In this document: one piece after another, positions 2,475-24,164 of the stretch
How positions within the stretch are numbered: position 1 is the first letter of the stretch
Layout: the number at the start of each line of letters is the position of its first letter
Origin: an uncultured Candidatus Saccharibacteria bacterium
Lineage (GTDB): Bacteria > Patescibacteriota > WWE3 > UBA101185 > UBA10185
Assembly (NCBI GenBank): GCA_964615625.1
Contig: CAZTQT010000005.1
Location: 1-54,829, forward strand
Direction of reading: 5' to 3'
Length of the DNA: 54,829 bases
Position numbers and translations under genes: made by a program
Notes under the pieces: model-generated
Databases searched by the model: none
What the model was told of the DNA's origin: nothing
What the model saw: the letters and a program-made list of their open reading frames with translations, nothing else

Positions 2475-2526
2475 AAAAGCACTATATAGAGAGAAAGTTT
2501 TTATGTATGGGTATATAAGGTGACTC

Positions 2527-3721: not shown

Positions 3722-3744
3722 AGACTCATTATAACCGAAGTGAC

Positions 3745-3774: not shown

Positions 3775-3781
3775 ATATAAC

Positions 3782-4153: not shown

Positions 4154-4155
4154 AA

Positions 4156-4338: not shown

Positions 4339-4339
4339 A

Positions 4340-4453
4340 AAGGGACAACCTTCCGGTATCCACAGCTTGGCAGCAATAGACCCTATGGAAAGGTTGCCCC
4401 TTCATGGGTCCATTGCTTTTTTAAGCATGTTTAAGTAAAGCTGCCAAGCTGTG
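4340..4453 (-). promoter_or_regulatory. Structured leader with alternative anti-RBS pairing
   Basis: Perfect 14-bp IR CACAGCTTGGCAGC (4361-4374) / GCTGCCAAGCTGTG (4440-4453). 4387-4402 is nearly complementary to the RBS region 4340-4354. Confidence 0.55.
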
Positions 4454-4559
4454 TTTAATTTACTTGTTTATTATATCAGGAGTTTTTGATATTCAATACA
4501 AAAGGATATCTTAAAAAGAAATTGTGGTGGTTAATATTAAGAAATATAATAGTCTTAGC

Positions 4560-8294: not shown

Positions 8295-8361
8295 AAATGG
8301 ATTCTTTTCAAAGTTTATTGGGGATACTAAGGCTGAGACATTCCGATGGTAATATCTAAAT

Positions 8362-9114: not shown

Positions 9115-9157
9115 GGTAACTTTATGCTTTGAGATAGAAATAGTACATAACAAAGAA

Positions 9158-10249
9158 CTATTTGATAAATCTAATCTGTAAATTCAGATTAAATCTCAAA
9201 GAGTTGTCGGAATTATATACATTTCCAAACCCATACCTACTTGTAGAAGGAGTATCGAATTTTGTGTTATTGAACAGGTAATTCTCAAACTCATTCACAT
9301 TGTATATGTGATAACAGACCAGGTCACCGTCATCTTTCACTATTATGTAGCCTCCCGATGCCCAATAATCACCTTCCCAAGCTTTAGCAGGGGTCATCCC
9401 TAGTGCAACAGCAACCAGGAAACGTTTAATTTTATATACATACAATTTGTGCGTATCTGTATGAAAATTCAAAGGATTTTCCTGTTCCAAAAGGGCAACT
9501 AAATCCTTAACTGTAGAAGCTCTGCCAGAGTAGTAATAGAGCACCATATTTGAAATTATTTCGGGTAAACGTGAATCTATCATTCCTAAATTAAGGGTGA
9601 ATATCTCGTTACCTGTAGAAACAAACTCAAAATTATAACCTTGTTCGATTAAACTAGCTATTTTGTCTCTTATTCTTAAACTCTCGTCACCAACATCGTA
9701 ACCTACATCAGATGATTCTCTTACACTATGTTTTTCACTATTGAGATTGTATTCAAAATTTGTAGCATTCCCTGCATTAAGTAAAGTAGAAGCACCTCCC
9801 AATTGAGATTTAATACTAAAACCTAAAGTAGGAGTTAGTCCTGTTCTAAAATCATGAATTATTAAATTGATATCTTCTTTCTTATTTGAATTTGCCTTTA
9901 GTTTTTTTACATGAATAGTTTTCAAGAATTCCTCTACGTCTGCTACGCCAAATGTTCTGCCTTTTATAGCATCGCTTTTTATAGTTTTCAAAACCTTTTC
10001 TGCATTCATTTGGAAAGTATCGAAGGGTATTTCACCTAACACTTTTGAATTATCTCCATCAATAATTTTTACTAAACCTTCCCTTCTATACTCCAAATCT
10101 CTTTCTTCCTTCCTTAAAATACTAATAATCGGGTAATAAATGTCTTTAACTCGTTCCAGGTTTTCGTTTGCAGCATATAATTCACCAGCTCCTAATAGCT
10201 TTAAGAAAGTATAAATTTCACTCCATTCGCCTATATTACCTGTCATCAT
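9158..10249 (-). CDS. Type II restriction endonuclease, HpaII family
   Basis: N-terminus GNIGEWSEIYTFLKLL, GFSIKSQLGGASTLLNA, and C-terminal KFDTPSTSRYGFG...LNLQIRF. Overlaps the MTase gene by 14 nt. Confidence 0.85.
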   Translation of the reverse strand: MMTGNIGEWSEIYTFLKLLGAGELYAANENLERVKDIYYPIISILRKEERDLEYRREGLVKIIDGDNSKVLGEIPFDTFQMNAEKVLKTIKSDAIKGRTFGVADVEEFLKTIHVKKLKANSNKKEDINLIIHDFRTGLTPTLGFSIKSQLGGASTLLNAGNATNFEYNLNSEKHSVRESSDVGYDVGDESLRIRDKIASLIEQGYNFEFVSTGNEIFTLNLGMIDSRLPEIISNMVLYYYSGRASTVKDLVALLEQENPLNFHTDTHKLYVYKIKRFLVAVALGMTPAKAWEGDYWASGGYIIVKDDGDLVCYHIYNVNEFENYLFNNTKFDTPSTSRYGFGNVYNSDNSLRFNLNLQIRFIK

Positions 10250-11252
10250 AAAGTTTATCTCCTAAAATTTTTACTATTTCCTCTGCAGTGGCCTGTATTG
10301 CGGGTACAGCAACAGAATTGCCAAATTGTTTATATGCTTGTGCATCAGATACAGGTATCTTGAAAGAATCAGGAAATCCCTGCAACCTTGCCCATTCCCT
10401 AGGAGTCATCTTTCTAATTCCCTCTCTATTAACCTCACCCTTAATATTTGTTATTGGTACAAAATTTTCAAGTCTAGTATCTATAATCAAGTTTCTCTCC
10501 CTGCCCATACCCCCTACAACTACAGCATTAGCAATATCATCTAGGTCTTTTATTTCATAACCAAAACCATTACCTTTACTTTCATGCCTTTTCTTATGTT
10601 CTCTTAGGGACTCTAGATAAACATCAGATAGATAATACTTCACGGATACGGGTTCTTCCTCAACTATATCTTTAATGGAAACATTAATATTTCTTGGTTT
10701 AGGATACTCAAAAGAATCAATCCCCAGGTCCTTCCTAAAACCAATGATAAAAACTCTTTCTCTGTTTTGAGGAACACCATAATCCTTAGCGTTTACTATT
10801 TGGGGTTCTGGCACATAGTAATCCAGGTCTTCTCGCAATACGTTTAGAATTGTTTTTAGAGTCCTGCCTCTGTCATGATTGGTTAATCCTTTTACATTCT
10901 CTAGAAACACTACTTTAGGTCTCTTGTGTTTAATTATTCTAGCTACTTCAAAAAACAAAGTACCTCGAGTGTCTTCAAAACCCCCTCTTTTACCTGCAAT
11001 TGAGAAGGCTTGGCAAGGAAACCCCGCTAGCAAAATTTCATGGTCTGGAACATCTTGTTCCTTTATTTGTCTTATATCACCGAAGGGAGTTTCACCAAAA
11101 TTGGCATGGTAAGTCTGCTGACTATATTTATCCCATTCAGAGGACATTACTGATTCACCACCAACATTCTCAAAAGCCATTCTGATACCACCGATACCAG
11201 CAAAAAGGTCTATTACTCTGAATTTTTTAATGTCATTAACCATTATTTCCAT
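10236..11252 (-). CDS. DNA (cytosine-5) methyltransferase, cognate of the endonuclease
   Basis: DLFAGIGG (motif I), GFPCQ (IV), LENV (VI), QNRER (VIII), QFGNSV (X). Confidence 0.97.
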   Translation of the reverse strand: MEIMVNDIKKFRVIDLFAGIGGIRMAFENVGGESVMSSEWDKYSQQTYHANFGETPFGDIRQIKEQDVPDHEILLAGFPCQAFSIAGKRGGFEDTRGTLFFEVARIIKHKRPKVVFLENVKGLTNHDRGRTLKTILNVLREDLDYYVPEPQIVNAKDYGVPQNRERVFIIGFRKDLGIDSFEYPKPRNINVSIKDIVEEEPVSVKYYLSDVYLESLREHKKRHESKGNGFGYEIKDLDDIANAVVVGGMGRERNLIIDTRLENFVPITNIKGEVNREGIRKMTPREWARLQGFPDSFKIPVSDAQAYKQFGNSVAVPAIQATAEEIVKILGDKLYDDR

Positions 11253-11287
11253 TATACATTGGTCAATAACAATACATAAAGGTATTA

Positions 11288-11365
11288 TTAGACTAAACTA
11301 GGTATAGAAACTGTAGCAGGACAAGTCATAAAATAGTTACAAACTTCGTCCACTATGCTCGACCA
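11288..11365 (-). other. Detached C-terminal coding segment of the recombinase (rejoined on excision)
   Basis: Reads in frame from the shared TGG TCG core as WS-SIVDEVCNYFMTCPATVSIPSLV*. It has no start codon of its own. Confidence 0.6.
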
Positions 11366-11561
11366 ATGAATTTTGGCTACCGATGTAATTGGTAGACAAA
11401 ATTTATTAGTGGGTGGTAAGGAGTTAACCTAGGCTTTAGCCGTGGTTCCACTTTTGATGCTATAGTGCGGAGCACTATGGCTCAAATGCAAGCTTTGCTT
11501 TGTCCGCCCACCCCGACCAATGAATTTTGGCTACCGATGTAATTGGTAGACAAAATTTATT
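11360..11561 (+). repeat. 48-bp perfect direct repeat (11360-11407, 11514-11561) flanking a structured mini-element with an 18-bp tRNA-Pro 3' copy
   Basis: CGACCAATGAATTTTGGCTACCGATGTAATTGGTAGACAAAATTTATT occurs twice and is itself a hairpin. GTCCGCCCACCCCGACCA at 11502-11519 equals 173-190. Confidence 0.95.
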
Positions 11562-11569
11562 TAACAACA

Positions 11570-12019
11570 ATGACAAAGCCAATAAGAAACAATTTGATAA
11601 TCGAATTGCATATTCCAGATCTTAAAGTGGCTGAAAATTTTTATTCCAAGCTAGGCTTCTCAACCAACATATACGATAAACCAAATGAGGAGGAATTGGG
11701 ATATATGACAATGACTCTAGAAAGTACCTTAGGTAATACAATGCTTAATTTTTATGGCGGAGATGATAGAGTTTATAACCAATCCTACTTTAAACAGTTT
11801 CCAAAAGATACAAAAAGAGGATATGCAACTGGAATTACAATACCAGTAGATAACATAGAGAGTATCTACGATCTAGCAAAAACCAATCTTTCAAATTATA
11901 TTGTTCGTGAACTGGAGGAACTTCAGGATCGTAATTTCAGCTGGAAAGATTTCCGCATAGTGGATCCTTTTGGTTTTTATATTAAATTTACTGAACTTGT
12001 AGATTGGGGACAAGATTAA
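11570..12019 (+). CDS. VOC/glyoxalase-family protein
   Basis: ELHIPDLKVAENFYSKLGF and WKDFRIVDPFGF motifs. ATG 11570 preferred over the track start 11543. Confidence 0.8.
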   Translation: MTKPIRNNLIIELHIPDLKVAENFYSKLGFSTNIYDKPNEEELGYMTMTLESTLGNTMLNFYGGDDRVYNQSYFKQFPKDTKRGYATGITIPVDNIESIYDLAKTNLSNYIVRELEELQDRNFSWKDFRIVDPFGFYIKFTELVDWGQD

Positions 12020-12117
12020 GTTTATTCAAATACTTGGATATTAATAAACTTAGATAGTAAAATTTAAATATAATTAATTTTTAACGGCTTATGTGTTCAG
12101 CCGCATGAGGGGTAAAA

Positions 12118-13287
12118 ATGGAGAATAATCAAACTTCATCAAATATTAGCAACATAGTAGAATCTAACAACCAATTTGCTTTAGATTATTATTTTCAATT
12201 AAAAAATAAGGAAAGTGGAAACGTTTTTTTATCTCCTTTCAGTATTTATAGTATTTTAGCTATGGCTTATGAAGGAGCAAGAGGGCAGACAGCTGAGGAA
12301 ATGAGATCATTACTGCACCTTCCAACAGATGATAGTTTAAGAAGATCTGAGTATGCAACAACAGTTGAAGGTTTAAACAACGATGATAAAAAATATAAAA
12401 TCAGTATTGCTAACGCACTTTGGGCTCAACAAGATTATAAGTTTCTAGATGAATATCTTAATATAGTAGAAAATTTTTATGGTGGAAAAGCCAATAACCT
12501 TGATTTCAAAAAAGACCCGGAAGGCTCTAGAACAACTATAAATAACTGGATAGAAGAACAAACAAACGACAAAATCAAGGATTTAATACCTTTTGGGATA
12601 ATTGATGGATCAACAAGACTTATACTTACAAACGCAATTTATTTTAAAGGTGAATGGGTAAGACAATTCAATGCAGAAGAAACAAGAAATGAAAATTTTA
12701 GAATAAATGCAAACGAATCTATTGATGTCCAAATGATGAGACGTGTTGATGAGGATGCTAAATTTAATTACACCGAAAACGATGATTTACAGATTCTTGA
12801 AATGCCTTATTCAGGCGAAGAACTATCTATGCTAATCCTTCTTCCGAAAAATGATGATCTAGAAACATTAGAAAATTTACTCAGTACAAAAAAACTATCA
12901 GAGTGGAAACAAAATCTAGAAAACCAGCATGTTGTGGTATCTATTCCAAAATTCAAATTTGAGACTAAATACTTTATGGCTAAAGATCTTAAAGCAATGG
13001 GAGTACCTACAGCGTTTGATTGGCCAGGAGCTAATTTTTCTGGAATGGACGGTGCGGAGGAGTTGTTTATCGGAGAGGTTATTCACCAAGCACTTGTTGA
13101 GGTAACTGAAGAAGGAACCGAAGCGGCAGCGGCAACTACAGTAGTTTCATTGAAGGGATCTATGAGAAGTAATAATACCCATACAATCCCTGTTTTCCGT
13201 GCGAATCATCCCTTTATATTTCTAATTCAAGAAAAAACTAATGGGAATATTTTATTTATGGGAAGGGTTGTTAACCCAACCCTATAA
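12118..13287 (+). CDS. Serpin-family protease inhibitor
   Basis: NVFLSPFSI, NAIYFKGEW, hinge EEGTEAAAAT, FRANHPFIFLI, ILFMGRV. GAGGGG RBS. Confidence 0.95.
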   Translation: MENNQTSSNISNIVESNNQFALDYYFQLKNKESGNVFLSPFSIYSILAMAYEGARGQTAEEMRSLLHLPTDDSLRRSEYATTVEGLNNDDKKYKISIANALWAQQDYKFLDEYLNIVENFYGGKANNLDFKKDPEGSRTTINNWIEEQTNDKIKDLIPFGIIDGSTRLILTNAIYFKGEWVRQFNAEETRNENFRINANESIDVQMMRRVDEDAKFNYTENDDLQILEMPYSGEELSMLILLPKNDDLETLENLLSTKKLSEWKQNLENQHVVVSIPKFKFETKYFMAKDLKAMGVPTAFDWPGANFSGMDGAEELFIGEVIHQALVEVTEEGTEAAAATTVVSLKGSMRSNNTHTIPVFRANHPFIFLIQEKTNGNILFMGRVVNPTL

Positions 13288-13359
13288 AATCTATTAGGAA
13301 AACATTTGGTACGTCAATTACGACTCCTTAGTAAAATTTAATTCTAAACTGTGAAACAA

Positions 13360-14277
13360 TCAGTCGTAGAAACACTCACCATATATTTCTTCAGGTACTT
13401 GATTTTCTTCCATCAAGTCACAACGCGGATAATCCTGCCCAGAATAAATTTCAACCCATTTACCATCTACTAATTTAGCAATTACAAAGTGACCTGTACG
13501 CCTATAATTAACATTTATTAAGGCGTAATCATCAACTTTTTTACTAACAGATATAGTTGCGTCTTTGATATCTAAATCTTTCAGGTATTGGGATTGTTCA
13601 GTGTAATTGTTATCGTATGACTCAGTACATGTAAAAGAAAAACTGTTGTAAAACGGCTCTGTTTCTGAAAAAGCTACACAATCAGGATTTGCTCTAAAAA
13701 CACATTTAGAGATGCCTTTTTCATACGCTTGGATATAATCATAAAGATGTGGATCTTCCAATGACTTGGATGAGTTTTTGTAGTTTAAGACATAATCATA
13801 AGACTCCATTATTTCCTTTATATCTGTTGATAATGTAGATACTATTTTGCTAAATAAGGTATCATCGGAAGAAGAAAAGTTATTACAATCATAATTTTTA
13901 TAAACTAACCCTGTTTCCTTATCATTCATAATGTTTAAACCATCGTCCCCAACCCACCAAACAGAAGCCTCGGTATCCAACAAAACGTCACCTTGGTAAA
14001 TATTAGAAACATTGTTAAAACTCTTCTCTATATCAGCACCAAATTCATATTTTTCAGTGAAAATAGAGGTAGGTGATTTTACAGACGTAGACGAATCACC
14101 ATATTTTATATTTTCTATCCCACCAGAATCACTCAAAGATTTTTTATTTTGAAAACAACAGTACACCAGTGTTGCAAAAAACATTAACAAAGAAATTGCT
14201 AAAAGTATTAAAAGAGCCAAATTAAGCTTGTTTTGATTTTTAACACTATTTTCCCGTTTTTTATCTGTTTTATTCAT
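13360..14277 (-). CDS. Membrane-anchored Cys-containing surface protein, unknown function
   Basis: N-terminal TM helix and several Cys in the extracytoplasmic part. Confidence 0.7.
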   Translation of the reverse strand: MNKTDKKRENSVKNQNKLNLALLILLAISLLMFFATLVYCCFQNKKSLSDSGGIENIKYGDSSTSVKSPTSIFTEKYEFGADIEKSFNNVSNIYQGDVLLDTEASVWWVGDDGLNIMNDKETGLVYKNYDCNNFSSSDDTLFSKIVSTLSTDIKEIMESYDYVLNYKNSSKSLEDPHLYDYIQAYEKGISKCVFRANPDCVAFSETEPFYNSFSFTCTESYDNNYTEQSQYLKDLDIKDATISVSKKVDDYALINVNYRRTGHFVIAKLVDGKWVEIYSGQDYPRCDLMEENQVPEEIYGECFYD

Positions 14278-14464
14278 GTTTTACCCTTTAAATAACTTAA
14301 AAAAACCTGCTTTTATAGTAACATATTTGTTATTAAGAAAACCCTGTATAACAATGGAAGATTGGATGGGATACATTCAAAAAGAAAAAATAAAGTCCTC
14401 CCAACCACAGTAGAATTGTCATCTTGTAAGCTAGGTGTCTCTCTGATAATCTATACCTCAAGAT

Positions 14465-15289
14465 ATGGTGAATAACTCATCAAGTAACTACTTTTACAAA
14501 AACGGTAAGAGGATAATAAAAAAGAAGATTCCAAAACAAATTGTTGTAGAAGATATTGATCATATTAGCTCCCTAATCACGGAAGAAGAAAAGTTCACTA
14601 TTGCCCAGCCTGAAATTAAAAAACCTTGGATAAAAACAAAAACTGAAAGAGTAAAAGGTGTAATTTCAAAAATCCAAAATGATAAGAGATCTAACATGGC
14701 TAAAATTAGAGCAGGAGTAACTGGTATATGGGCATCAGCATCAGTTCTAGCCATTTTTACATTTTTAACTTCTTTCATGGTTACGCCCCAAAAAGCAAAA
14801 CCTCAAGATACAAGAAGGTACTCTATATACTCATCTAAACCTTTAACACTGCAAACTGCCACGACATCAATATATTCAAAAGATTCAAGAGCTCAGAAAA
14901 TAAATGCTGTTTATAAAAAATATAATTGTCCGTTAGAAGGTATGGGTGATGTTTTGGTCTATGAAGCTGACAAAAATAATATACCTTGGTGGTTAGTAGC
15001 TGCAGTATCTTTCCAAGAATCAGGATGTGGAAAAGTGACACCAAAAGTAGGAGGTAAGGAATCGTACAACGCGTGGGGTTGGGGAGTGTATGGGAATGTT
15101 GTTGTTACATTTGAAAACTGGGTAAGAGGTATAGAAAGGGTATCAAAATATTTTTCTGACAAGTTCTATTCGAAAGGAGTAGAAGATTTGTGTATAATAA
15201 TGAATACGTACACACCACCTTCAAATGGTTCTTGGTGTAACGGTGTAAAATACTTTGGAGATATGATACAAAACTACGAAACTAAATAA
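14465..15289 (+). CDS. Membrane-anchored lysozyme-fold peptidoglycan hydrolase (glucosaminidase/transglycosylase-like)
   Basis: TM helix, then AAVSFQESGCGK and YNAWGWG motifs. Confidence 0.75.
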   Translation: MVNNSSSNYFYKNGKRIIKKKIPKQIVVEDIDHISSLITEEEKFTIAQPEIKKPWIKTKTERVKGVISKIQNDKRSNMAKIRAGVTGIWASASVLAIFTFLTSFMVTPQKAKPQDTRRYSIYSSKPLTLQTATTSIYSKDSRAQKINAVYKKYNCPLEGMGDVLVYEADKNNIPWWLVAAVSFQESGCGKVTPKVGGKESYNAWGWGVYGNVVVTFENWVRGIERVSKYFSDKFYSKGVEDLCIIMNTYTPPSNGSWCNGVKYFGDMIQNYETK

Positions 15290-15379
15290 ACTGCTCTTTG
15301 GTTTCCCCTATTTAATCCTATGAAACATATCCTATAGCGTTTGCATAAATAGTGAAAAAATGTTAAAATTTTCCCTCGT

Positions 15380-15946
15380 ATGGTCAAAAAACTATCTAAA
15401 ATACAATTTAATTTCTTGCCGGCTATTTTGCTTTTTGTTGGTTTTACAACATTCCTTGGATCTGTAGAGAAAAAACCAACAAAAATGAGGTCTGAATCTA
15501 TAGTAAAAAAGGATGTATCTAAAAAAGAAGAGAAGGTGGAGGCTTTAGAAAAGTTCTTAGAGAGCCAAAAATCTCCTCTTGCCAAGAATGCTCGTACATT
15601 TGTAGATGTAGCCGAAAAATATAATCTAGATTATAGACTTTTACCTGCTATTGCATGCTTAGAGTCTTCTTGCGGTAAAAGGATTATTCCTGGATCTTAT
15701 AACCCATTTGGGTGGGGTATATATGGAAAAAATGCCATTTACTTTAGGTCTTACGATGAGGCTATTGAGATTGTTGGTAAGGGTATAAAAGATAAATATG
15801 TTTCAAAAGGACTAGATACACCTGAAAAAATAGCCCCTGTTTATACTCCTCCTAATCCAGTAGGGTGGAGAAATGGGGTCAATTTCTTTATAAGTAAAAT
15901 AGATGGCCCTGTTACAAAAGATCAGACCACGCTTTTTTCTTGTTAA
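15380..15946 (+). CDS. Second lysozyme-fold hydrolase paralogue
   Basis: Signal or TM segment, then PAIACLESSCGK, YNPFGWG and YTPP, matching the upstream gene. Confidence 0.75.
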   Translation: MVKKLSKIQFNFLPAILLFVGFTTFLGSVEKKPTKMRSESIVKKDVSKKEEKVEALEKFLESQKSPLAKNARTFVDVAEKYNLDYRLLPAIACLESSCGKRIIPGSYNPFGWGIYGKNAIYFRSYDEAIEIVGKGIKDKYVSKGLDTPEKIAPVYTPPNPVGWRNGVNFFISKIDGPVTKDQTTLFSC

Positions 15947-15960
15947 GACGCTAACGGGAG

Positions 15961-16155
15961 TTTGCTGGTGGGCGAGAGAGGACTCGGTCACAAGTCCACG
16001 TATCTCTACGTCACTCCGTTCCTAGAGCTTCGTGGCTCGCGACCCCCTCTCGCTCGCCTTCGGCTCACTGCGAATTATTCTCGTCCTCTCTCATAAGCGA
16101 AAAATATATCGGCATAAAGCCGACACATTTTTGCTGGTGGGCGAGAGAGGACTCG
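15961..16155 (-). repeat. 26-bp direct repeat of the tRNA-Leu 3' end enclosing a 143-bp structured mini-element
   Basis: TTTGCTGGTGGGCGAGAGAGGACTCG at 15961-15986 and 16130-16155. Confidence 0.92.
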
Positions 16156-16217
16156 AACCTCCACCCTTGCGGACACGGTCCTAAGCCGTGCGCGTATGCC
16201 AATTCCGCCACTCGCCC
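16135..16217 (-). tRNA. tRNA-Leu(TAG)
   Basis: 83 nt: acceptor GGGCGAG/CTCGCCC, anticodon arm CACGG-CTTAGGA-CCGTG, long variable arm, encoded CCA. Confidence 0.97.
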
Positions 16218-16360
16218 TTAAACTTCAACTTTTGAGTAACTTAGATTATATACTAACTGAGAAAATGATAAAAATTTCACAAACAACTTACCAAATCCTT
16301 ATACATAAATATTCAAACTATCTCAGCAAAAACTCAGAAAACTATATATAATTGTGCCCA

Positions 16361-17052
16361 ATGAGAATACTGATTGTAGAAGATGAACATAAAATCGCCG
16401 ATTCTATAAAACAAGGTCTTGAACAAGAAAATTTTGCTGTTGACGTTTCATATGACGGATCAGATGGTTATGACATGGCGTTATCTGAAGAATATGATTT
16501 GATAATCCTTGATCTCATGTTACCAAAAATGAACGGGCTTGAAATATGCGAAAAATTGAGAGCAGAAAATAACCACACACCAATACTAATGCTTACCGCT
16601 CTAAATGAAATTGAAGATAAGGTAAGTGGTTTGACAAGTGGGGCAGACGATTATCTGACAAAACCTTTTGCTTTTACTGAACTTCTTGCACGTATCCGAG
16701 CTCTTCTTAGGAGACCAAAGATTATGTTACCGGATGAGATAGTGTGCGGCGATCTTTATATAAATACTAAAAACTTTAAGGTTACACGAGCAGGAAAAGA
16801 TATTAACCTCTCCAAAAAAGAATTTTCCCTTCTTGAGTACTTAGCAAGAAACAAAAATAAGATTGTTACAAAGGATCAAATTATAAGTCATGTTTGGGAT
16901 TATGATTCCGATGTACTTCCAAATACAGTGGAGGTATACATTGGTTATCTAAGAAATAAAATCGATGCTCCCTTTAAGGGAAAAACAAGTTTATAAATAC
17001 TGTTAGAGGATTCGGGTACATATTTAAATATGAGGAGAAAAATAGTGTTTAA
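16361..17052 (+). pseudogene. OmpR-family response regulator, frameshifted near the C-terminus
   Basis: MRILIVEDE...DLIILDLMLP...DDYLTKPF receiver and winged-helix domain. The zero frame stops at 16996 and the conserved TVRGFGY is in the -1 frame, ending at 17052. Confidence 0.8.
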
Positions 17053-17098
17053 ATCAGCAAGAATAAAATTAACTACATACTATCTATTTTCATTATGA
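17030..17098 (+). pseudogene. N-terminal remnant of the cognate sensor kinase
   Basis: MRRKIVFKSARIKLTTYYLFSL* overlaps the regulator end and resembles the basic lead-in to a sensor kinase first TM helix. No kinase domain follows. Confidence 0.5.
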
Positions 17099-17193
17099 AT
17101 ATTGAACAATTGTTGAAAATCGAAAATGATCAAATAATTTTATAAAACAGCCCTCTTCACACACAATCACCAAAAATGTTTTAAAATAACCTT

Positions 17194-18195
17194 ATGGGAA
17201 TAGAGCATATACCAAATACCAACAATGATAATGAATTCCCTTTTCCTTATTTACCTAGTAGAGATACAGAAACAAACGAAGAGAAAATTATAGGTACTGG
17301 GTGGGAATCACAAGTAAAAATGTTAGGACCAGATTGGGTTCTAAAAGAAGTAAACCCATTTACATCTTGGGGTGAAGAAAGATCACAAGAAATGATCAAT
17401 TATCTTAGAAACCCTGAAAGAGTTAGGGCTATCATGGATGATCAAGATAAAATTAGCAAAATATTTGGGGAGGAACACTTTGCTAGATCATATTTTATTT
17501 ATGGAAAAGATCAAAATGGAAAAGAGGGTTACATATTAGTACAAAAATTTATCCCAGGAAAAGCCTTATCAGAAATGATAGGGGTCGATTACAAAAATAC
17601 CGATGAAATGATAAATGAAAATAGAGAACAATTTAAAGATATTGTATGGGGTCTGAAAAAATCGTTTATTGAATTTGGTGTTCCTGTAGATTTTCACCCT
17701 GGAAATTTAATAAAAAATGAAAAGACGGGGAAAATAGTAATCATGGATACAGGCATCCCATCACGAGAATTTAGGACTGTTATGAGCGACGAACGTACAG
17801 AAAAAGCTTTTAATATTTTTGAAAATGCGTACAAAAGATTAGATAGGATGAGTAGATACGAAAGGCTGCTCAAACTAACTGAAGAGGAAAAGCTAGAACT
17901 AGATAATAAATACGATATAACTGACAAGCAATATAACGACCGCTTAGAAAATCTTAACAATATGAAAAACGAAAAAGGTTTTGAAATTAGTGTTGTTAAC
18001 CCTGTAGATAAACTTTTAAATAATATTTTTGGCGGAAGAGACAAGATCGATGGACAAGAATTATTAGACTATGCTTTTAAAACACTAGGTGAAAGAAAAC
18101 CAACTGAAAGTCAGGAAATTATTTTGGATAAATTAAGGGAACAAAGCACTGTTTTAGGAAATAAGGCCTATTGGAAGAATATCATTGAATTATAA
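17194..18195 (+). CDS. Protein-kinase-like fold protein
   Basis: IGTGWES (Gly loop), VLKEV (Lys), LVQKFIPG (hinge), DFHPGN (catalytic loop), IMDTG (DFG equivalent). Confidence 0.7.
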   Translation: MGIEHIPNTNNDNEFPFPYLPSRDTETNEEKIIGTGWESQVKMLGPDWVLKEVNPFTSWGEERSQEMINYLRNPERVRAIMDDQDKISKIFGEEHFARSYFIYGKDQNGKEGYILVQKFIPGKALSEMIGVDYKNTDEMINENREQFKDIVWGLKKSFIEFGVPVDFHPGNLIKNEKTGKIVIMDTGIPSREFRTVMSDERTEKAFNIFENAYKRLDRMSRYERLLKLTEEEKLELDNKYDITDKQYNDRLENLNNMKNEKGFEISVVNPVDKLLNNIFGGRDKIDGQELLDYAFKTLGERKPTESQEIILDKLREQSTVLGNKAYWKNIIEL

Positions 18196-18281
18196 GCAAC
18201 TCTCAATACTAAAATATAATGAAAAATTATATCGTACCTTTAGGGTTTGTATAAGGTATTTACTCGTGTAATAATTTTTAT

Positions 18282-19328
18282 ATGGTTGAAAACCCCTTTT
18301 TACATTACGAGGATACACATGCGGAGACACTTGATAAAATGGATATTGAATCAAAAAACCACACTACTCTTTTTGGGGCAATGGGCAAAGAGAAATATTT
18401 ATCATTTGCTTACGGTGAAGGTTTAAAAAGCAATCCAAAATTGCAAGAAGAATTATCCAAAAACGGCTTCACAGATGCAAAATATTCAATCGGAACATTT
18501 AACAATGAGAGAGGGGAGGAAGAAACCTCACTATTTATTTCACTTGAATTACCTAGCAACAATATCATATATGAATGTGATGTTAATAGTAAAAAAATGT
18601 GGCCATTTGATATGTACGAGGCTAAACATATCTACATTTTAGGAAAAAACGGTGAGGCTACAGATTTAATGGAGGAGCTTAGACCAACTGAAACTAAATT
18701 AATGATATGTCCAAATAAAAGGTTTCCCTTTGCTGGAGCATCTTTCAAAGAAAATATGATTGTCCTGCCTGATCTAAGAAAATTTTCAATTAAAAATCTT
18801 GGAGATGAAATAATGGATTTCCCTGTCATACTGCATGAGATAGGACACATAAAGCACCGGAAAGTAGAGCCAAATATTTTTAATGAGAGAGCACAAGCGG
18901 TAATGAATCTAACTTCCTTAATTGGTCTAGATAGATCCAAAATTGAAAAATTAAAAGGTACTCTCTTTGATAAATTGGCATGTTTTATTGAAGAACGCGC
19001 TCCAATTCTTTTAAGACAAGAGGAAATCGCATCATCTTGGGCATGTAAATGGATTGAGAAAAACAAAGAGCAAGGATTTAATTTTTGGAAAAGTATTACA
19101 GAAAATTACTGGGAACAGCTTGATATAGCACTTGCGACCTATAAAAATTTCTGGACAACAGTAGAAAATAAAGCCTGGTCTTTTGAAAACGATAGTGCTG
19201 ATAAATACATTTTTGAAAATTTAGTAAAACAATGGCAAGAACAATACCCACACCTTAACATTAAAGTAAATTCTGAAATCCCAAATACAATTAATGAAGA
19301 AAATAAAGATATTTCCCCTCTTTTGTAA
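18282..19328 (+). CDS. Hypothetical protein with HExxH zinc-metallopeptidase-like motif
   Basis: VILHEIGH plus a downstream EEIA helix. Confidence 0.6.
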   Translation: MVENPFLHYEDTHAETLDKMDIESKNHTTLFGAMGKEKYLSFAYGEGLKSNPKLQEELSKNGFTDAKYSIGTFNNERGEEETSLFISLELPSNNIIYECDVNSKKMWPFDMYEAKHIYILGKNGEATDLMEELRPTETKLMICPNKRFPFAGASFKENMIVLPDLRKFSIKNLGDEIMDFPVILHEIGHIKHRKVEPNIFNERAQAVMNLTSLIGLDRSKIEKLKGTLFDKLACFIEERAPILLRQEEIASSWACKWIEKNKEQGFNFWKSITENYWEQLDIALATYKNFWTTVENKAWSFENDSADKYIFENLVKQWQEQYPHLNIKVNSEIPNTINEENKDISPLL

Positions 19329-19427
19329 AATCTCTAGCTTTCTCTAATGACTTTTTAAATTCTTGCAAAAATTTTGAAGAAATTATTTAAACTTAACACA
19401 TTGCCTTGTGCTAGAATACCAACGAAT

Positions 19428-20615
19428 ATGAAAAAGCAAGAAAAGAAAAAAAGAATATATATGGACTATGCCGCTACAACACCTGTAGATAAAAAGGTTG
19501 TTAAAGCTATGCTTCCTTACTTTACGGAAAAGTATGGTAACACATCATCAATCCACACAATGGGAACAATTGCCAATACAGCTGTAAACAGAGTTAGAGA
19601 AGAAATTGCCAATTATATAAGCTGTCAAATAAACGAGGTTTATTTCACATCCTCAGCTACAGAAAGTAACAACTGGGCTCTAAAATGTGTAGCGTCTGCA
19701 AATAAAGACAAGGGGGACAAAATAATAATTTCATCTATAGAGCATGATTGTGTTTTAAATAGCGCAGAATGGTTATCAAAAAATGGCTTTAATGTAGAAC
19801 ATGCTCCTGTTGATGAGTTTGGATCAGTTAAGTTAGATGAATTAGAAAAAATGATGACTAAAGACACTATTTTGGTCTCTGTAATGCATTCAAACAATGA
19901 AATTGGAACAATACAACCAATAGAAGAGATAGGGAAAATATGCAAAAAGAAAGGGATATTGTTCCATACAGATGCGTCCCAAAGTTTTGGAAAGATGCCT
20001 ATAAATGTACAAAAACTAAATATAGATTTATTAACGGCTTCATCACATAAAATATATGGTCCTAAGGGTGTCGGCCTTCTTTATATAAAAAACGGCGTAA
20101 AAATAGATACTTTTATCCACGGTGGGGGGCATGAAAGAGGCAAAAGATCATCAACAGTTAATGTTCCTGCAATTGTTGGGTTTGGAAAAGCTTTAGAAAT
20201 CTGCATAAAAGAAATGTACGATGAAAAACTCAGACTCACAAATTTAAGGGATAAAATAATAAAAAGTGTTCTGAAAAATATCCCAGACTCCCATCTAAAT
20301 GGACATTCTACAAAAAGACTACCCAACAACATAGACATGAGATTTGATTTTATAGAAGGGGAGGCCCTGATGATGGAGTTGGACATGAACGGAATAGAAG
20401 TTTCTACAGTGTCGGCATGCTCATCCCCAAAATTACAGGCATCACATGTACTTTTATCCTGCGGTGTTGAGGAAAAATATGCCCAAGGAACAATAAGGAT
20501 AACATTAGGTAGATACACAAAAGAAAGTGAAGTAAAATATTTATTGGAGGTTTTACCAAAAGCCGTTCAAAAGCTTAGGAAAATATCTCCCATGAATATA
20601 CATAATTCAGAATAA
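19428..20615 (+). CDS. iscS: Cysteine desulfurase (IscS/NifS)
   Basis: YMDYAATTP, HTDASQ, SSHKIYGPKG (PLP Lys), SACSS (catalytic Cys). ATG 19428 preferred. Confidence 0.95.
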   Translation: MKKQEKKKRIYMDYAATTPVDKKVVKAMLPYFTEKYGNTSSIHTMGTIANTAVNRVREEIANYISCQINEVYFTSSATESNNWALKCVASANKDKGDKIIISSIEHDCVLNSAEWLSKNGFNVEHAPVDEFGSVKLDELEKMMTKDTILVSVMHSNNEIGTIQPIEEIGKICKKKGILFHTDASQSFGKMPINVQKLNIDLLTASSHKIYGPKGVGLLYIKNGVKIDTFIHGGGHERGKRSSTVNVPAIVGFGKALEICIKEMYDEKLRLTNLRDKIIKSVLKNIPDSHLNGHSTKRLPNNIDMRFDFIEGEALMMELDMNGIEVSTVSACSSPKLQASHVLLSCGVEEKYAQGTIRITLGRYTKESEVKYLLEVLPKAVQKLRKISPMNIHNSE

Positions 20616-20617
20616 AA

Positions 20618-21100
20618 ATGTATACAAAAAAAGTTTTAGATTACTTTAAAAAACCAAAAAACTTAGGAAAAATAAAAAACGCTGATGGTGTTGGAAAAGT
20701 TGGTAACATGGCCTGCGGAGATGTAATGCATCTCTATATAAAAGTAAAAGAAGAAAAAGGAAAAGAAATTATATCGGACATAAAATTCCAAACTTTTGGT
20801 TGTGTTGCGGCTATTGCAACAAGTAGTGCTGTAACAGAAATGGTAAAAGGAAAAACATTTGAGGAAGCATTAAAAGTTGGTAAAGGAGACATCATAGATT
20901 CTTTAGATGGGTTACCTCCAATTAAAATACACTGTTCTGTTCTTGCTACGGAAGCCCTAGCCGAAGCAATTTATGATTATTTGAGCAAAAATAACAAACC
21001 CATACCAGAAATCCTTGAAAAACAACATGAAAAAACAGTTAAAGAAAACGAGATGCTTGAAGAGAGGTACGAGGAATGGACAGAAAATCAGCAAGATTAA
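20618..21100 (+). CDS. iscU: Fe-S scaffold IscU/NifU-N
   Basis: GNMACGD, FGCVAAIA, KIHCS: three conserved Cys. Confidence 0.93.
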   Translation: MYTKKVLDYFKKPKNLGKIKNADGVGKVGNMACGDVMHLYIKVKEEKGKEIISDIKFQTFGCVAAIATSSAVTEMVKGKTFEEALKVGKGDIIDSLDGLPPIKIHCSVLATEALAEAIYDYLSKNNKPIPEILEKQHEKTVKENEMLEERYEEWTENQQD

Positions 21101-22140
21101 AAAACAAAAAAGTAGTTGTAGGTGTATCTGGAGGAGTTGATTCTACCGCCGCGTTAATTCTTCTACAAAAAAGGGGTTACACACCTGTCGGGATTTCTCT
21201 TAAACTTCCAAAATGGCATGGTGATAACAACAATTCAATAAAAAAGGCAGAGGAAATATGTAAAATCCTTAAATGCGAGCACCGTGTTTTAGATATAGAA
21301 AAAGACTTTCAATCAAATGTGGTGGATTATTTTGTTAAAACTTTAACATCAGGAAAAACTCCGAATCCATGCATGGTATGCAATAAAAACACAAAGTTTT
21401 TTCACCTTTTTAAATTCGCTGATGAAAACAATATAAAACACGTTTCAACAGGACATTACGCAAAAATTACAAAAAGTAGAAAACACAAATCTTTTTTCAT
21501 AACTCAACCAAAAGATAAAAATAAAGATCAAACTTATTATTTAAGTCTCCTACCTCAAGAATGGTTAGAAAGAATCATTTTCCCGTTAGGGGAAGTGGTT
21601 AAAGATGATGTTTATAAAATAACTAAAAAAGCAGGATTCCATTTTGAAAACATTTCTCAAAGCCAAGATTTCTGTTATATACCAGATGAATCAATTGATA
21701 GCTTTATTGAAAAAGAAATAAAAGTCAAAGAAGGGCAAATAATTGATAGCGAAAGAAAGGTTATAGGAAAACACAGAGGATTAGAGTATTACACAATAGG
21801 GCAGAGAAAAAAGATAGGATTAGCAGGAGGGCCTTATTACGTTACTAAAAAAGACGTTGGAACAAATAATTTGTTTGTCTCAAAAGATAAAAAAGATTTA
21901 GGAAAAACAGATATATACCTTTCTGATGTCTTTTTTGCAAATAATAAAATGTACGGTAAAAAACTTAAAGTAAAAGCAAAAATAAGATACCAACACAACC
22001 TCGCTCAAGCTATGATATCCCCAACAGAGGGTAGGGAATACCTAATAAAATTTGCAAAACCACAACTAGCAATAACTCCAGGTCAATATTGTGTTTTTTA
22101 TATTAATAAAATGTGTGTAGGATCTGGGATTATTAAGTAA
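21076..22140 (+). CDS. mnmA: tRNA 2-thiouridylase
   Basis: SGGVDS PP-loop, TPNPCMVCN, TGHYA, DQTYYL, SQDFC, ITPGQ. Confidence 0.95.
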   Translation: MDRKSARLKNKKVVVGVSGGVDSTAALILLQKRGYTPVGISLKLPKWHGDNNNSIKKAEEICKILKCEHRVLDIEKDFQSNVVDYFVKTLTSGKTPNPCMVCNKNTKFFHLFKFADENNIKHVSTGHYAKITKSRKHKSFFITQPKDKNKDQTYYLSLLPQEWLERIIFPLGEVVKDDVYKITKKAGFHFENISQSQDFCYIPDESIDSFIEKEIKVKEGQIIDSERKVIGKHRGLEYYTIGQRKKIGLAGGPYYVTKKDVGTNNLFVSKDKKDLGKTDIYLSDVFFANNKMYGKKLKVKAKIRYQHNLAQAMISPTEGREYLIKFAKPQLAITPGQYCVFYINKMCVGSGIIK

Positions 22141-22165
22141 CTCCGTGTGATACAATAACCACATT

Positions 22166-23119
22166 ATGCAAACAAAAATAGAAAAACAACCAAAATCAAC
22201 AATAAAAATGACCGTTGTTATAGAAAACAGCGCAGTTAAAGATTTTTATGAAAAAGAAGTTTCTCATGCTGTAGAATATGTAGAAATACAAGGTTTCAGA
22301 AAGGGAACAGCCCCAAAAGAAATGGTAATAGAAAAAGTTGGTAATTCCAGACTGTATGGAGATACAATAAACAGTCTTTTACAACACTATTACCCACAAG
22401 CTTTAAAGGAAAACCATCTTAACCCGATATCTAACCCAAAAGTGGACATAAAGGAGTTTGATATATCAAAAGACCTCGAGTTCACAGCAGAATTTGCAGT
22501 TAGACCAGAGGTTAAAATTGGAGATTATAAAAAGGCCTTGAAAGATTATTACAAGGAAAAAACAGAAAAACTTGAAGCTGCTAAATTAGAAAAATCAAAA
22601 GAAGAAGGGGATGATAAAAAAGAAGAACAAGAACACGACCACCATCACGATCATGTCCATATTGGTTCAAATGAAGTTATAGATATCCTTATAAAAGAAA
22701 CAAAAACTGAAGTTTCCGATATTTTGTTAGAAGAAGAAACAGACAGAATGATGACAAGATTGGTAGAACAACTGGAAACTATAAAATTGCCATTAGATAA
22801 ATATCTTGAAGCTCAAGGAAAAACTGCAGAAGAGTTAAGAAAAGAATATAACGATATGTCAGAAAAAAATATTAAGGCCGAGCTTGTTATGGCCCATTTA
22901 ATAGAGGTTGAGAAAATTGAGACTACGGATGAAGAAATAGACGAAATGATATCTGCAATAGGAGATCCTACATTAGGAGAAAAATTAGAAGATCCTGTAC
23001 AAAGACTTTATATCAAAAACATTCTTCAAAAAAATAAACTTTTAACCAAATTAATAGAAGAAGTGGAAGGACCAAACTTCCACGGTAATCACGAACATAA
23101 GGAGAAAAAAGATGAATAA
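22166..23119 (+). CDS. tig: Trigger factor lacking the FKBP/PPIase domain
   Basis: GFRKGTAP ribosome-binding motif, N-domain, charged His-rich linker, C-domain; 317 aa. Confidence 0.9.
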   Translation: MQTKIEKQPKSTIKMTVVIENSAVKDFYEKEVSHAVEYVEIQGFRKGTAPKEMVIEKVGNSRLYGDTINSLLQHYYPQALKENHLNPISNPKVDIKEFDISKDLEFTAEFAVRPEVKIGDYKKALKDYYKEKTEKLEAAKLEKSKEEGDDKKEEQEHDHHHDHVHIGSNEVIDILIKETKTEVSDILLEEETDRMMTRLVEQLETIKLPLDKYLEAQGKTAEELRKEYNDMSEKNIKAELVMAHLIEVEKIETTDEEIDEMISAIGDPTLGEKLEDPVQRLYIKNILQKNKLLTKLIEEVEGPNFHGNHEHKEKKDE

Positions 23120-23708
23120 CACATTAGTTCCAATAGTAATAGAAAAAGATCAAGGAGGGATGGAAAGATCCTATGATATATATTCCAGACTTCTTAAAGA
23201 TTTTATAGTTTTTGTTACAGGACCAATAGATATGGGGGTGGCAAATACTTTTATTGCACAACTACTTTTTCTTGAAAGTGTAAATCCTGATAAAGACATA
23301 AGTGTTTACATTAATTCCCCTGGAGGCGAGGTATATGCTGGAATCGCAATGTACGACACTATAAAACACATAAAAAATGACGTGGTTACAATAAATGTGG
23401 GACTCTCAGCTTCAGCTGGGGCTTTAATACTTTCGGCCGGGACAAAAGGTAAAAGATATGCTTTGCCAGGATCTCACACAATGATTCACCAAGTTATAGG
23501 TGGGGTAGAGGGGCAGGCAAGTGATGTTGAAATAACAGCAAAACACATGTTAAGACTTAGAGATCAATATGCTGAAGCTATATCAAAAGAAACGGGTCAA
23601 AAATTAGACAAAGTTAAAGGGGATATGGATAGAGATTACTGGATGGACGCAAACGAATCTGTAAAATATGGAATAATAGATAAAATAATGAATCCAAAGA
23701 AAAAATAG
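23112..23708 (+). CDS. clpP: ATP-dependent Clp protease proteolytic subunit
   Basis: DIYSRLL, YINSPGG, SASAG (Ser), MIHQ (His), DRDYWM (Asp). Confidence 0.97.
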   Translation: MNNTLVPIVIEKDQGGMERSYDIYSRLLKDFIVFVTGPIDMGVANTFIAQLLFLESVNPDKDISVYINSPGGEVYAGIAMYDTIKHIKNDVVTINVGLSASAGALILSAGTKGKRYALPGSHTMIHQVIGGVEGQASDVEITAKHMLRLRDQYAEAISKETGQKLDKVKGDMDRDYWMDANESVKYGIIDKIMNPKKK

Positions 23709-23773
23709 GGTAAAATACCTTCTGTTTATTAATAAAACTAGACTTGGTGGTTTGAAAAATAAAATAATACTTC

Positions 23774-23850
23774 GGGCGGTTAGCTCAGCCGGTTAGAGCG
23801 CCACATTGACATTGTGGAGGTCATAGGTTCGATCCCTGTACCGCCCACCA
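23774..23850 (+). tRNA. tRNA-Val(GAC)
   Basis: 77 nt: acceptor GGGCGGT/ACCGCCC, anticodon arm CCACA-TTGACAT-TGTGG, GGTTCGATCC, encoded CCA. Confidence 0.97.
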
Positions 23851-23902
23851 AAACAACTAAACTAGATTTACGAAAATTTCCAAATAAAAAGATAAAGTAT
23901 CT

Positions 23903-24164
23903 AGGCTGTTAGCTCCTGTTGGAGCGAAGCGACAACCGATCCTAACCAACCTAAAGAATATAGAAATATATTTAAATGAGCCAGTGGCGAATAAGTAGTA
24001 AGAAAATAAAACAAGCAAAAGTACAGAAGAGTTAGGAGAGTCGGTTAGAGCGCCACATTGACATTGTGGAGGTCATTGGTTCGCAAAATTCCTGCATCGC
24101 TACGCGATGTAAAAGGAAGCGCAGCGAGTGAAACGAGCGAGCAAGCTTTTATTACCGCCCACCA
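23903..24164 (+). pseudogene. Second tRNA-Val copy in three pieces, split by 126-nt and 70-nt insertions
   Basis: 23904-23915 matches 23775-23786 at 11/12, 24042-24083 matches 23790-23831 at 41/42, and 24154-24164 matches 23840-23850 at 11/11. Confidence 0.8.

Follow-up and report, generated by a model that had tools for sequence, protein, structure and literature searches.

We analysed a window of 54,829 nt from an uncultured Candidatus Saccharibacteria bacterium (contig CAZTQT010000005.1), the whole stretch being the final 54.8 kb of a 97-kb metagenome contig. It is chromosomal DNA with housekeeping genes and a GC content of 33%, and ARAGORN and Rfam detect exactly three tRNA genes in it, tRNA-Pro, tRNA-Leu and tRNA-Val. 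All three are accompanied by short non-coding inserts bounded by a duplicated piece of the tRNA, as a preliminary description of the window had reported; the lengths given there stand for the Pro insert (94 nt) and the Val T-loop insert (70 nt), while the Leu insert measures 145 rather than 143 nt and the Val D-loop insert 125 rather than 126 nt. We consider it an evenly balanced proposition that these inserts represent a modular family of tiny, non-coding, hairpin-forming mobile DNA elements that are non-autonomous and mobilised in trans. The recurring modules were named A, B, C (the Leu type) and the Pro module. In module B, the two stem strands P1 and P1´ enclose, in this order, GAAGCGCAG, a variable hairpin P2 and CGAGCAAG; in the Val insert the module is preceded by a further hairpin, hp1. 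The features of the three loci are as follows.

tRNA-Pro locus
1-46, minus strand: tail of a module B upstream of tRNA-Pro, cut by the window edge, with GAAGCGCAG as reverse complement (1-9), P1 (10-15) and the hairpin GTTGC-GTA-GCAAC (16-28)
115-190, plus strand: tRNA-Pro(UGG), intact; attL of a genomic island at its CCA end
11366-11407, plus strand: native trailer/terminator of tRNA-Pro, 42 nt, part of the first copy of a 60-nt direct repeat
11408-11501, plus strand: Pro insert, 94 nt
11409-11416, plus strand: left end of the Pro insert, GTGGGTGG, complementary to orphan tRNA positions 61-68
11454-11492: repeated module inside the Pro insert, hairpin CTATAGTGC-GGA-GCACTATGG
11502-11561, plus strand: orphan tRNA-Pro 3´ fragment GTCCGCCCACCCCGACCA (G59 to CCA) and second 42-nt trailer

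tRNA-Leu locus
16135-16217, minus strand: tRNA-Leu(UAG), intact
16153-16130, minus strand: proximal direct repeat, the 3´ part of the functional tRNA-Leu
16093-16129, minus strand: spacer X, a terminator-like hairpin GTCGGC-TTTA-TGCCGAT with a T-run, immediately after the functional tRNA-Leu
16083-16092, minus strand: inverted arm GAGAGAGGAC, exact reverse complement of positions 59-68 of the distal tRNA-Leu copy
15985-16082, minus strand: C-type body, 98 nt, GC-rich, in the order GAGAAT, B-like core CGCAG..GCC-GAA-GGC..CGAGCGAG, GGGGGTCGCGAGCC, long hairpin with loop GGAACGGAGTGACG, end GTGACCG
15961-15984, minus strand: orphan tRNA-Leu 3´ fragment and distal direct repeat, A58 to CCA plus GCAAA

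tRNA-Val locus
23774-23850, plus strand: tRNA-Val(GAC), intact
23904-23915, plus strand: degenerate 5´ fragment GGCtGTTAGCTC of a pseudo-tRNA-Val
23916-24040, plus strand: module A (CTGTTGGAGCGAAGCGACAACCGATCC ... AGTTAGGAGAG) in the D-loop of the pseudo-tRNA, 125 nt
24041-24083, plus strand: body of the pseudo-tRNA from the D-loop to T-loop G57, a repeat of 91% identity
24084-24153, plus strand: T-loop insert after G57, 70 nt, hp1 and module B
24094-24109, plus strand: hp1, GCATCGC-TAC-GCGATG
24110-24115, P1 of module B, TAAAAG; 24116-24124, GAAGCGCAG; 24125-24137, variable region; 24138-24145, CGAGCAAG; 24146-24151, P1´, CTTTTA
24154-24164, plus strand: orphan 3´ end ACCGCCCACCA of the pseudo-tRNA

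At the Leu locus, the insert (16129-15985) lies between two direct repeats that each run from A58 through CCA and a further GCAAA (16153-16130 and 15984-15961, minus strand), and the GTGACCG end of its body stands directly against A58. The complementarity between insert and tRNA proposed earlier for this locus is borne out as an exact 10-nt match of GAGAGAGGAC, for which we estimate a chance expectation of ~0.002 (~2,100 pairings × 4^-10). Folded as DNA, the unit reaches -25 kcal/mol (z = -3.9), and 0 of 200 shuffles fold equally well.

The Pro insert likewise holds an 8-bp equivalent of the inverted arm. Complementarity had been noticed here too, in a register (GGGTGG/CCACCC) that was slightly off; the real closing stem of the unit pairs GTGGGTGG (11409-11416) with CCGCCCAC (11504-11511; z = -3.7). 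In the window strain, a genomic island separates tRNA-Pro from this insert and has displaced the tRNA part of the first 60-nt repeat copy to 173-190. The original order can be read in an island-free strain, L021 (L-numbers are labels of comparison loci, strains or contigs), where tRNA-Pro is followed by the 42-nt trailer, the 94-nt insert and a second G59-to-CCA segment plus trailer, and the 60-nt repeat is perfect. The B tail at 1-46 is part of an array between an orphan 5´ fragment, CGGGGTGT, and the functional tRNA-Pro, the full array being present in L021 and L022.

Downstream of the intact tRNA-Val lies a pseudo-tRNA-Val (23904-24164) that contains two inserts, ends in ACCGCCCACCA and is not detected as a tRNA by Rfam. 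The AACCGA/TCGGTT complementarity claimed for this locus is not significant alone, as ~1 such 6-nt match is expected by chance; the fold signal is also weak (z = -1.7). A tRNA intron was considered for this locus and rejected, because an intact copy adjoins and, once both inserts are taken out, the T-stem lacks its 3´ strand and the acceptor stem is mismatched. The Val locus is identical in five independent assemblies. Indeed, the structures at the tRNA sites are identical across independent assemblies (ENA, JGI, NCBI and Logan), and they are therefore not assembly artefacts.

Shared modules, junctions and strain differences

A pattern scan for the B core picked up 127 copies, spread over 105 metagenome stretches, and nearly all of these copies are in contigs with a GC content of 32-46%. 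Sixty-three of the 127 lie within 300 nt of a tRNA, of which 28 are 5´-side antisense, 15 3´-side sense, 16 3´-side antisense and 4 5´-side sense; the exact B cores of the window are found at tRNA loci only. By blastn, the combination of hp1 and B is present in 31 compared loci. Among the low-GC hits in the scanned reference genomes, those with a paired P1 come mostly from Saccharibacteria, WWE3 and Patescibacteria, with four from metagenome-assembled genomes (MAGs) labelled Gammaproteobacteria, and most stand beside a tRNA or transfer-messenger RNA (tmRNA) gene or at a gene start. These sequence matches indicate a wide distribution of the family among Saccharibacteria, WWE3 and other Patescibacteria. 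The Gammaproteobacteria-labelled MAGs (L034, L052, L109 and L112; GC 38-53%) carry canonical B elements with tRNA or yebC end repeats, and either the family reaches beyond Patescibacteria or these contigs are mis-binned. The same scan of viral contigs gave 51 matches, all of them chance occurrences in high-GC coding DNA, and thus no evidence of a phage origin.

The other modules recur as well. Module A is also found in the D-loop of a pseudo-tRNA-Ile (L229) and of pseudo-tRNA-Pro (L021/L022, L300, L263), a variant of it lies upstream of tRNA-Val in L002, and the composite of A in the D-loop and B in the T-loop occurs both at tRNA-Val in the window and at tRNA-Ile in L229. The D-loop of a pseudo-tRNA-Gly in L274 contains two copies of the hairpin module known from the Pro insert, and the Leu body matches an element at tRNA-Asp (L274) at 98% over 97 nt and elements at tRNA-Pro (L125, L271) and tRNA-Gln (L220, L253) at 93-95% identity (all blastn). 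The modules are common to several loci and up to 98% identical. The window inserts are built from modules that recur at other targets and are thus not independent scars. Other tRNAs in related genomes carry units, the stems covary and the inserts are related to one another, the outcome on which the preliminary description had staked its proposal of a family; it had overlooked this module sharing, the B-module array upstream of tRNA-Pro, the non-tRNA targets and the 11-kb island. In low-GC loci, 37 of the 82 tRNAs with full flanks have an end fragment within 350-450 nt (a B-selected sample). Half of these 37 have no canonical B core between tRNA and fragment, indicating that other modules are involved. 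The units are 60-170 bp long and non-coding, and the mini-units of 94-168 bp hold no open reading frame (ORF).

The stems are maintained while their sequence varies. Pair 3 of P1 is GC 65 versus AT 22, and pair 4 is AT 33, CG 19 and TA 14. P2 comprises 82 distinct sequences and forms a hairpin of at least 3 bp in 62% of cases versus 26% of shuffles, and hp1 forms a hairpin in 45% of copies versus 11% of shuffles. In the C body, a stem appears as CCACG/CGTGG, CCAAG/CTTGG or CCACA/TGTGG. Loops are mostly 3 nt, GAA being the commonest in hp1 and GAA and AAA jointly so in P2. GCGAAGC-type d(GCGNAGC) mini-hairpins are exceptionally stable in DNA (PMC13037366). Searches of the window and L022 with Rfam 15 covariance models, at gathering and permissive (E<=1 to 5) thresholds, returned tRNAs only. 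Because the triloops are of the DNA type, the modules can lie in sense or in antisense to the tRNA and Rfam gives no match, we infer that the folded DNA strand, and not RNA, is what matters. A purine-rich motif, GARCGRAGYGA (e.g., GAGCGAAGCGA or GAACGAAGTGA), which contains the GCGAAGC mini-hairpin, forms the loop of long hairpins in tRNA trailers (L253, L283, L125, L220) and is also seen inside modules A and C (window 16010-16022 and 23921-23933).

The junctions are precise. In tRNA and tmRNA genes they take fixed places in conserved loops, mainly T-loop G57/A58, and also fall in the D-loop, at position 9/10 and in the anticodon loop; in some protein genes they lie in the first codons. With each insertion the gene end is duplicated, the duplicate starting at the junction and ending 0-45 nt past the gene, and thus an intact gene survives beside the orphan fragment; these direct repeats are 8-75 nt long and have no fixed length. 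In the 3´-side sense B copies, the tRNA repeat begins at A58, plus or minus a nucleotide or two, 0-4 nt after P1´, and continues through CCA and 0-15 nt more. This A58 start is seen at tRNA-Glu, Lys, Phe, Ile, Ser, Thr and Val and at two tmRNAs. A short GGTTCG usually stands to the left of hp1, placing the module in a T-arm-like frame. In the 5´-side antisense B copies, the repeat measures 9-46 nt in total, between position 9 and a point a few nucleotides upstream of the gene. T-loop copies follow TTCG and gene-end repeats accompany the units; 5´-side copies share no preceding motif. In 3´-side elements, a terminator-like hairpin often follows the functional tRNA. The 57/58 breakpoint is also used in 5´-side duplications, as in L274 (4640-5010), where a pseudo-tRNA-Gly with two antisense Pro-insert modules in its D-loop is truncated exactly at T-loop G57, where it meets a diverged duplicate of the upstream flank together with the functional tRNA-Gly.

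A second repeat, in inverted orientation, is tied to the target. C elements carry, in the 8-10 nt that immediately precede the conserved GAGAAT on its 5´ side, the reverse complement of local tRNA positions 59-68, the arms being GGACAGGGAT at Gln, GTGACAGGAC and GTGATAGGAC at Pro, GAGAGAGGAC at Leu and GACGGGAC at Asp. The matches per 10 positions number 10 for Gln, 10 and 9 for Pro, 10 for Leu, 8 for Asp, 7 for Ser and 4 for Ala, compared to 2.7 for mismatched tRNA partners. In 3´-side antisense B copies, the arm repeats positions 54-63 perfectly in inverted orientation (e.g., GGGATTCGAAT). Since arms and repeats vary among bodies of 94-98% identity, the arm is target-specific and not a fixed part of the body. 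Moreover, the first 8-10 nt of the orphan recur, inverted, at the orphan-distal end of the element, so that the complete unit can be folded into a hairpin with a stem of target sequence.

B copies also lie just upstream of protein genes, where the arrangement corresponds. At dnaK and yebC the repeat spans the start codon, producing an orphan "Shine-Dalgarno sequence plus first codons", then the module and then the intact gene. The dnaK (L215, L244) and yebC-like (L052, L109) orphans encode the same amino acids as the functional start with synonymous codon differences (AGT versus TCA for serine); the dnaK orphans keep the Shine-Dalgarno sequence, and the yebC orphans are more conserved between L052 and L109 than are the synonymous sites of the functional copy. 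In many B copies away from tRNAs (L208, L228, L231, L255, L256, L267, L272, L276, L295), the 3´ stem and its flank read CTTGTATAAT, an extended -10 box located 6-10 nt before an ATG. Module B may supply promoters for leaderless mRNAs, and repeated, operator-like ATGTACTCA motifs stand before several of these copies.

Near-identical strains differ in their units. L017 has an empty Leu allele, from which the unit is missing precisely and which is also without spacer X, the Pro unit is absent from an empty site in L022, and L002 has an extra 5´ unit at Val that carries a 13-nt 5´ fragment of tRNA-Val. Upstream of tRNA-Leu, L021 (8100-8460) contains two extra tandem units of ~110 bp each, which carry the 5´ half of tRNA-Leu and its upstream flank with the junction in the anticodon loop, and the outermost fragment has a further 39-nt double-hairpin insert in its D-loop region. 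A 61-bp B unit upstream of tRNA-Pro is present once in L021 and three times in L022, and the modules at tRNA-Gln are shuffled between L220 and L253. The sole related locus, L276, has ~70% amino-acid identity to the window.

Proposed mobility, possible mechanism and alternative explanations

The presence of near-identical bodies at different targets points to movement. If the inserts are mobile elements, the units would move, or would recently have moved, as DNA through structure-specific recombination or transposition at the loop, with catalysis presumably in trans, as the elements have no coding capacity. The probable substrate would be the folded single strand, its hairpin stem reproducing the target duplex as in an integron attC site or the CTX-phi attP site. 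The target-specific direct and inverted repeats could be made by templated synthesis at integration or be carried as an att-like identity block; homologous recombination between repeats would then produce unit loss, module shuffling and tandem amplification, and the palindromic T-loop TTCGAA could permit a symmetric crossover. Trans-mobilised mini-elements had been suggested before, and the multi-copy modules, the polymorphism, the covarying hairpins and the lack of coding sequence agree with that suggestion. By contrast, the resident serine recombinase proposed as helper is ruled out as the direct mobiliser, as it crosses over at the CCA end and not at G57/A58, and its island is an independent event.

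Searches for a partner were made at several levels. A search of each complete locus for the sequence next to B, repeated in direct or inverted orientation, revealed no autonomous long version, nor was any kilobase-scale element bounded by modules found. ORF clustering across 125 module-bearing loci recovered only syntenic housekeeping genes and large serine recombinases as recurrent neighbours, and no recurrent transposase. The 54.8-kb window encodes no HUH/Y1 transposase. A reverse transcriptase, 3´ tail or internal promoter was not noticed, although no systematic search was made for these.

Several observations weigh against mobility. The only recombinases near the sites are the large serine recombinases, with crossover at the CCA end, and no linked enzyme was identified. 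No excised form, circular junction, de novo insertion or gain event was observed, and deletion between direct repeats, without any insertion, could account for all of the presence/absence differences. Since the "empty" Leu allele is without any terminator, it may be the derived state. Complementarity of the outer arm across B-type copies is modest (p = 0.02) and clear in a subset. The surveyed loci were chosen for carrying module B, which biases the frequencies, and the non-Patescibacteria control of 4 tRNAs is too small for use. The origin of the repeats also cuts both ways. Imported or displaced alleles are favoured by the synonymous-only differences of the yebC (L052/L109) and dnaK (L215) orphans and the retained Shine-Dalgarno sequence, and by the absence of spacer X from the empty Leu allele and from the conserved body. 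Generation of the repeats in situ is favoured by near-identical bodies with differing local repeats and by repeat lengths that cluster slightly above the minimum for rebuilding the gene.

A more conventional history, which we regard as unlikely, is that the orphans are attR or attL scars of integrase islands or prophages that entered at the T-loop or the 3´ end and decayed, and that into these scars MITE- or REP-like repeats later landed, the repeats being confined to such dispensable fragments since insertion into a functional tRNA is lethal. tRNA fragments left by mobile-element integration are indeed common (PMC9897764), and tycheposon islands carry partial tRNAs and remnants (10.1101/2020.12.28.424599). 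Serine-recombinase islands use these very tRNAs in the window and in L012, L125, L294 and L299. The hp1 and B modules often stand in a GGTTCG|...|A58 context that resembles a simple insertion after TTCG into an existing fragment, and B is also found away from tRNAs. However, the observed islands cross over at the CCA end and not at 57/58, and no kilobase-scale element bounded by a module and a direct repeat was found. Decay of islands also leaves unexplained the target-specific arm beside GAGAAT at six different tRNAs, the composite of A in the D-loop and B in the T-loop shared by Val and Ile, and the 10-18-nt repeats at tRNA 5´ ends and across the dnaK and yebC start codons.

Equally doubtful, in our view, is the boldest form of the mobile-element reading, in which a folded single strand, either DNA or RNA copied back to DNA, inserts at a nick in conserved tRNA loops and copies the target in both orientations, which would make these units a new class of miniature element. 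Each copy would then rebuild the essential gene that it interrupts and gain a target-matched stem, behaving, according to the intermediate, as a self-reprogramming att site or a prokaryotic counterpart of a short interspersed nuclear element (SINE).

It is improbable that the units are instead a functional RNA co-transcribed with the tRNA (a tRNA-like extension, terminator, processing signal or promoter cassette) that is selected and non-mobile. The covarying stems, the terminator-like hairpins at the start of 3´-side units, the CTTGTATAAT extended -10 box before ATG, which suggests promoter activity, and the conservation of yebC orphans above that of functional-gene synonymous sites would all suit such a role. 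Yet the modules are found in sense as well as antisense to the tRNA, sister strains can do without the units, the tandem copy number varies, Rfam gives no match, and triloops, typical of DNA hairpins, predominate. The processed tRNA-like RNA put forward earlier fares no better on these grounds, the loops being mainly triloops, including the GNA type, which owes its stability to DNA and not RNA, and the pseudo-tRNAs having degenerate acceptor 5´ strands that are not recognised as tRNA.

Slightly less probable still are by-products of error-prone repair or replication at tRNA genes (hairpin-induced template switching, tandem duplication, quasipalindrome correction) without dedicated mobility machinery, the shared modules being spread solely by homologous exchange between strains. 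Arrays and copy-number changes do occur, modules are shuffled between related strains (L220 versus L253), and the inverted arm is a perfect templated copy. The window also encodes the type IV pilus components PilN and PilO, with a putative link to competence; type IV pili are often linked to DNA uptake. Such processes cannot, however, place 94-98%-identical bodies at different tRNAs, nor can they put one and the same B core at unrelated targets by the dozen in phylum-level lineages, and the junction positions are too precise.

Further candidates were rejected. tRNA-primed reverse transcription from an arm resembling a primer-binding site does not fit, as the arm covers positions 59-68 and not the 3´-terminal 69-76. 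Hammerhead and other small ribozymes, split or permuted tRNAs, DNA-uptake sequences, decoy att sites and tRNA introns were set aside on inspection of the sequence because core motifs are absent, an intact copy is adjacent, copy density is too low or islands ignore the orphans. The decoy att sites among these had been suggested for the window, and they find no support, the serine-recombinase islands in the window, L125 and L294 using the CCA end of the functional tRNA despite the orphans.

Among the closest known kinds are the integrative elements that target tRNA or tmRNA genes (prophages, genomic islands, ICEs and tycheposons), with which we group integrase-less derivatives such as CIME-type and satellite elements. 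Such elements lie between an intact tRNA and a partial tRNA direct repeat and have precise empty sites in relatives (PMC9897764; 10.1101/2020.12.28.424599), and this combination is found for the 11-kb island and for the mini-units alike. Shared features further include an identity block from a tRNA loop through the 3´ end and beyond, fragment arrays from repeated integrations, presence/absence polymorphism between strains and the frequent terminator-like hairpin after the functional tRNA in 3´-side elements. By contrast, the mini-units measure 60-170 bp rather than kilobases, have no internal or linked integrase, contain covarying hairpins and a target-specific inverted arm, place the same body at many tRNAs and also occur at tRNA 5´ ends, D-loops and protein start codons. 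Williams (2002) is said to have defined a T-loop sublocation class of integration sites.

Miniature inverted-repeat transposable elements (MITEs) and small structured intergenic repeats (Correia, BOX, RUP, REP/BIME and the Rickettsia palindromic elements) resemble the units in their small size, high copy number, lack of coding sequence, hairpins and modular build; tandem amplification of an internal module is known from boxB of BOX, and Correia elements also lie near gene starts with possible outward -10 boxes. However, the present units are without intrinsic terminal inverted repeats or a target duplication of fixed length (the repeats are 8-75 nt), insert inside essential RNA genes, regenerate the gene end and copy an arm from the target. 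Elements of the IS200/IS605 type, which transpose as single strands, and their miniature derivatives (PATEs, REP-RAYT) have subterminal DNA hairpins, as the units do in hp1 and P1/P2, and their insertion 3´ of a short motif may have a parallel in the T-loop copies (TTCG|A); they also have internal sequence complementary to flanking DNA and can be mobilised in trans. Unlike the units described here, elements of this type are without target duplication and use guide pairing of ~4 nt that is not copied from the target, and no Y1 enzyme is found in the window. Like the units, the integron attC site and the CTX-phi attP site used by XerCD are bulged hairpins whose stem mimics the target duplex and in which structure and few bases are conserved around a variable loop; there, attI or dif is targeted rather than tRNA loops, whereas here the stem sequence changes with the target. 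Finally, target-primed retroposition, as of SINEs and long interspersed elements, produces variable-length target duplications and non-autonomous, tRNA-related elements. The inverted arm would fit snap-back synthesis, and spacer X would fit extra sequence at the 5´ junction, but the hairpin loops look like those of DNA, and a reverse transcriptase, tail or promoter was not noticed in the unsystematic inspection described above. We know of no bacterial SINEs.

A literature search on such elements in Saccharibacteria or Patescibacteria found nothing relevant, and the family looks undescribed, consisting of miniature integrative or repeat elements. To our knowledge, few mobile elements have been described in bacteria of the candidate phyla radiation, the genomes of which are tiny. 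If the mobile-element reading is correct, elements of 60-170 bp inside the ends of tRNA, tmRNA and protein genes, without inactivation of the gene, would be a previously unrecognised source of genome plasticity. They are polymorphic among strains, occur in tandem arrays and may act as sources of terminators and promoters; they can also create pseudo-tRNAs and repeats, and the strain differences may add to assembly breaks (e.g., at the ends of contig L199). The target-matched inverted arm is the most interesting feature, as a short copied sequence would define the target if integration makes or uses the arm, which would be relevant to recombination mechanisms and possibly as a tool. That the finding amounts to something mechanistically new seems to us unlikely.

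The 11.2-kb island and other features of the window

The island at tRNA-Pro has the following features.

191-11365: genomic island, 11.2 kb, integrated at the CCA end of the functional tRNA-Pro
1813-92, minus strand: large serine recombinase ORF with Resolvase, Recombinase and Zn_ribbon_recom domains (Pfam)
4524-8294, plus strand: ORF of 1256 aa with no Pfam match
8362-9114, plus strand: weak HNH-like ORF
9158-11252, minus strand: HpaII-type restriction endonuclease and C5 cytosine methylase pair
11344-11365: attR P-arm CTTCGTCCACTATGCTCGACCA at the right island end

Its other genes encode an HTH protein and cargo ORFs, and the cargo resembles the defence cargo of a tRNA-integrated island. The junctions are at CGACCA|, the CCA end, and the attP arm is loosely similar to tRNA. 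A "degenerate" Pro copy that had been read as part of the mini-element (11344-11365) is in fact this attR arm. The island is missing in L021 and L022, and L199 is the same island from another sample; the latter is ruled out as an excised circle, as its ends are the integrated attL and attR flanks. Thus, the 11.2-kb island is a separate, conventional integration, unrelated to the mini-elements, that split one unit from its tRNA.

The serine recombinase ORFs of islands at tRNA-Pro and tRNA-Leu cross the whole tRNA gene in antisense (window 92-1813; L012 828-2528; L299), the last ~25-30 codons being tRNA antisense (e.g., ...GDRIRTCDL... in L299). As these final codons lie in the tRNA, the C-terminus of the recombinase would differ between the integrated and the excised island. 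Between the recombinase gene and the next island ORF lie ~210 nt of GC-rich non-coding DNA (2022-2235) with CCCCCTTCGGGG-type hairpins, in which several windows have at least 58% GC versus 33% for the genome and Rfam gives no match at E<=1; this stretch may be a structured RNA of the island.

The housekeeping genes of the window include those for trigger factor, ClpP, ThrRS, PheST, TyrRS, a penicillin-binding protein, RecG, NusB, RNase III and TrmD, besides PilN/O. Just downstream of the tRNA-Pro locus, a full-length gene for a serpin (serine protease inhibitor; 12118-13287, plus strand) is kept in all strains; serpin genes are uncommon in bacteria.

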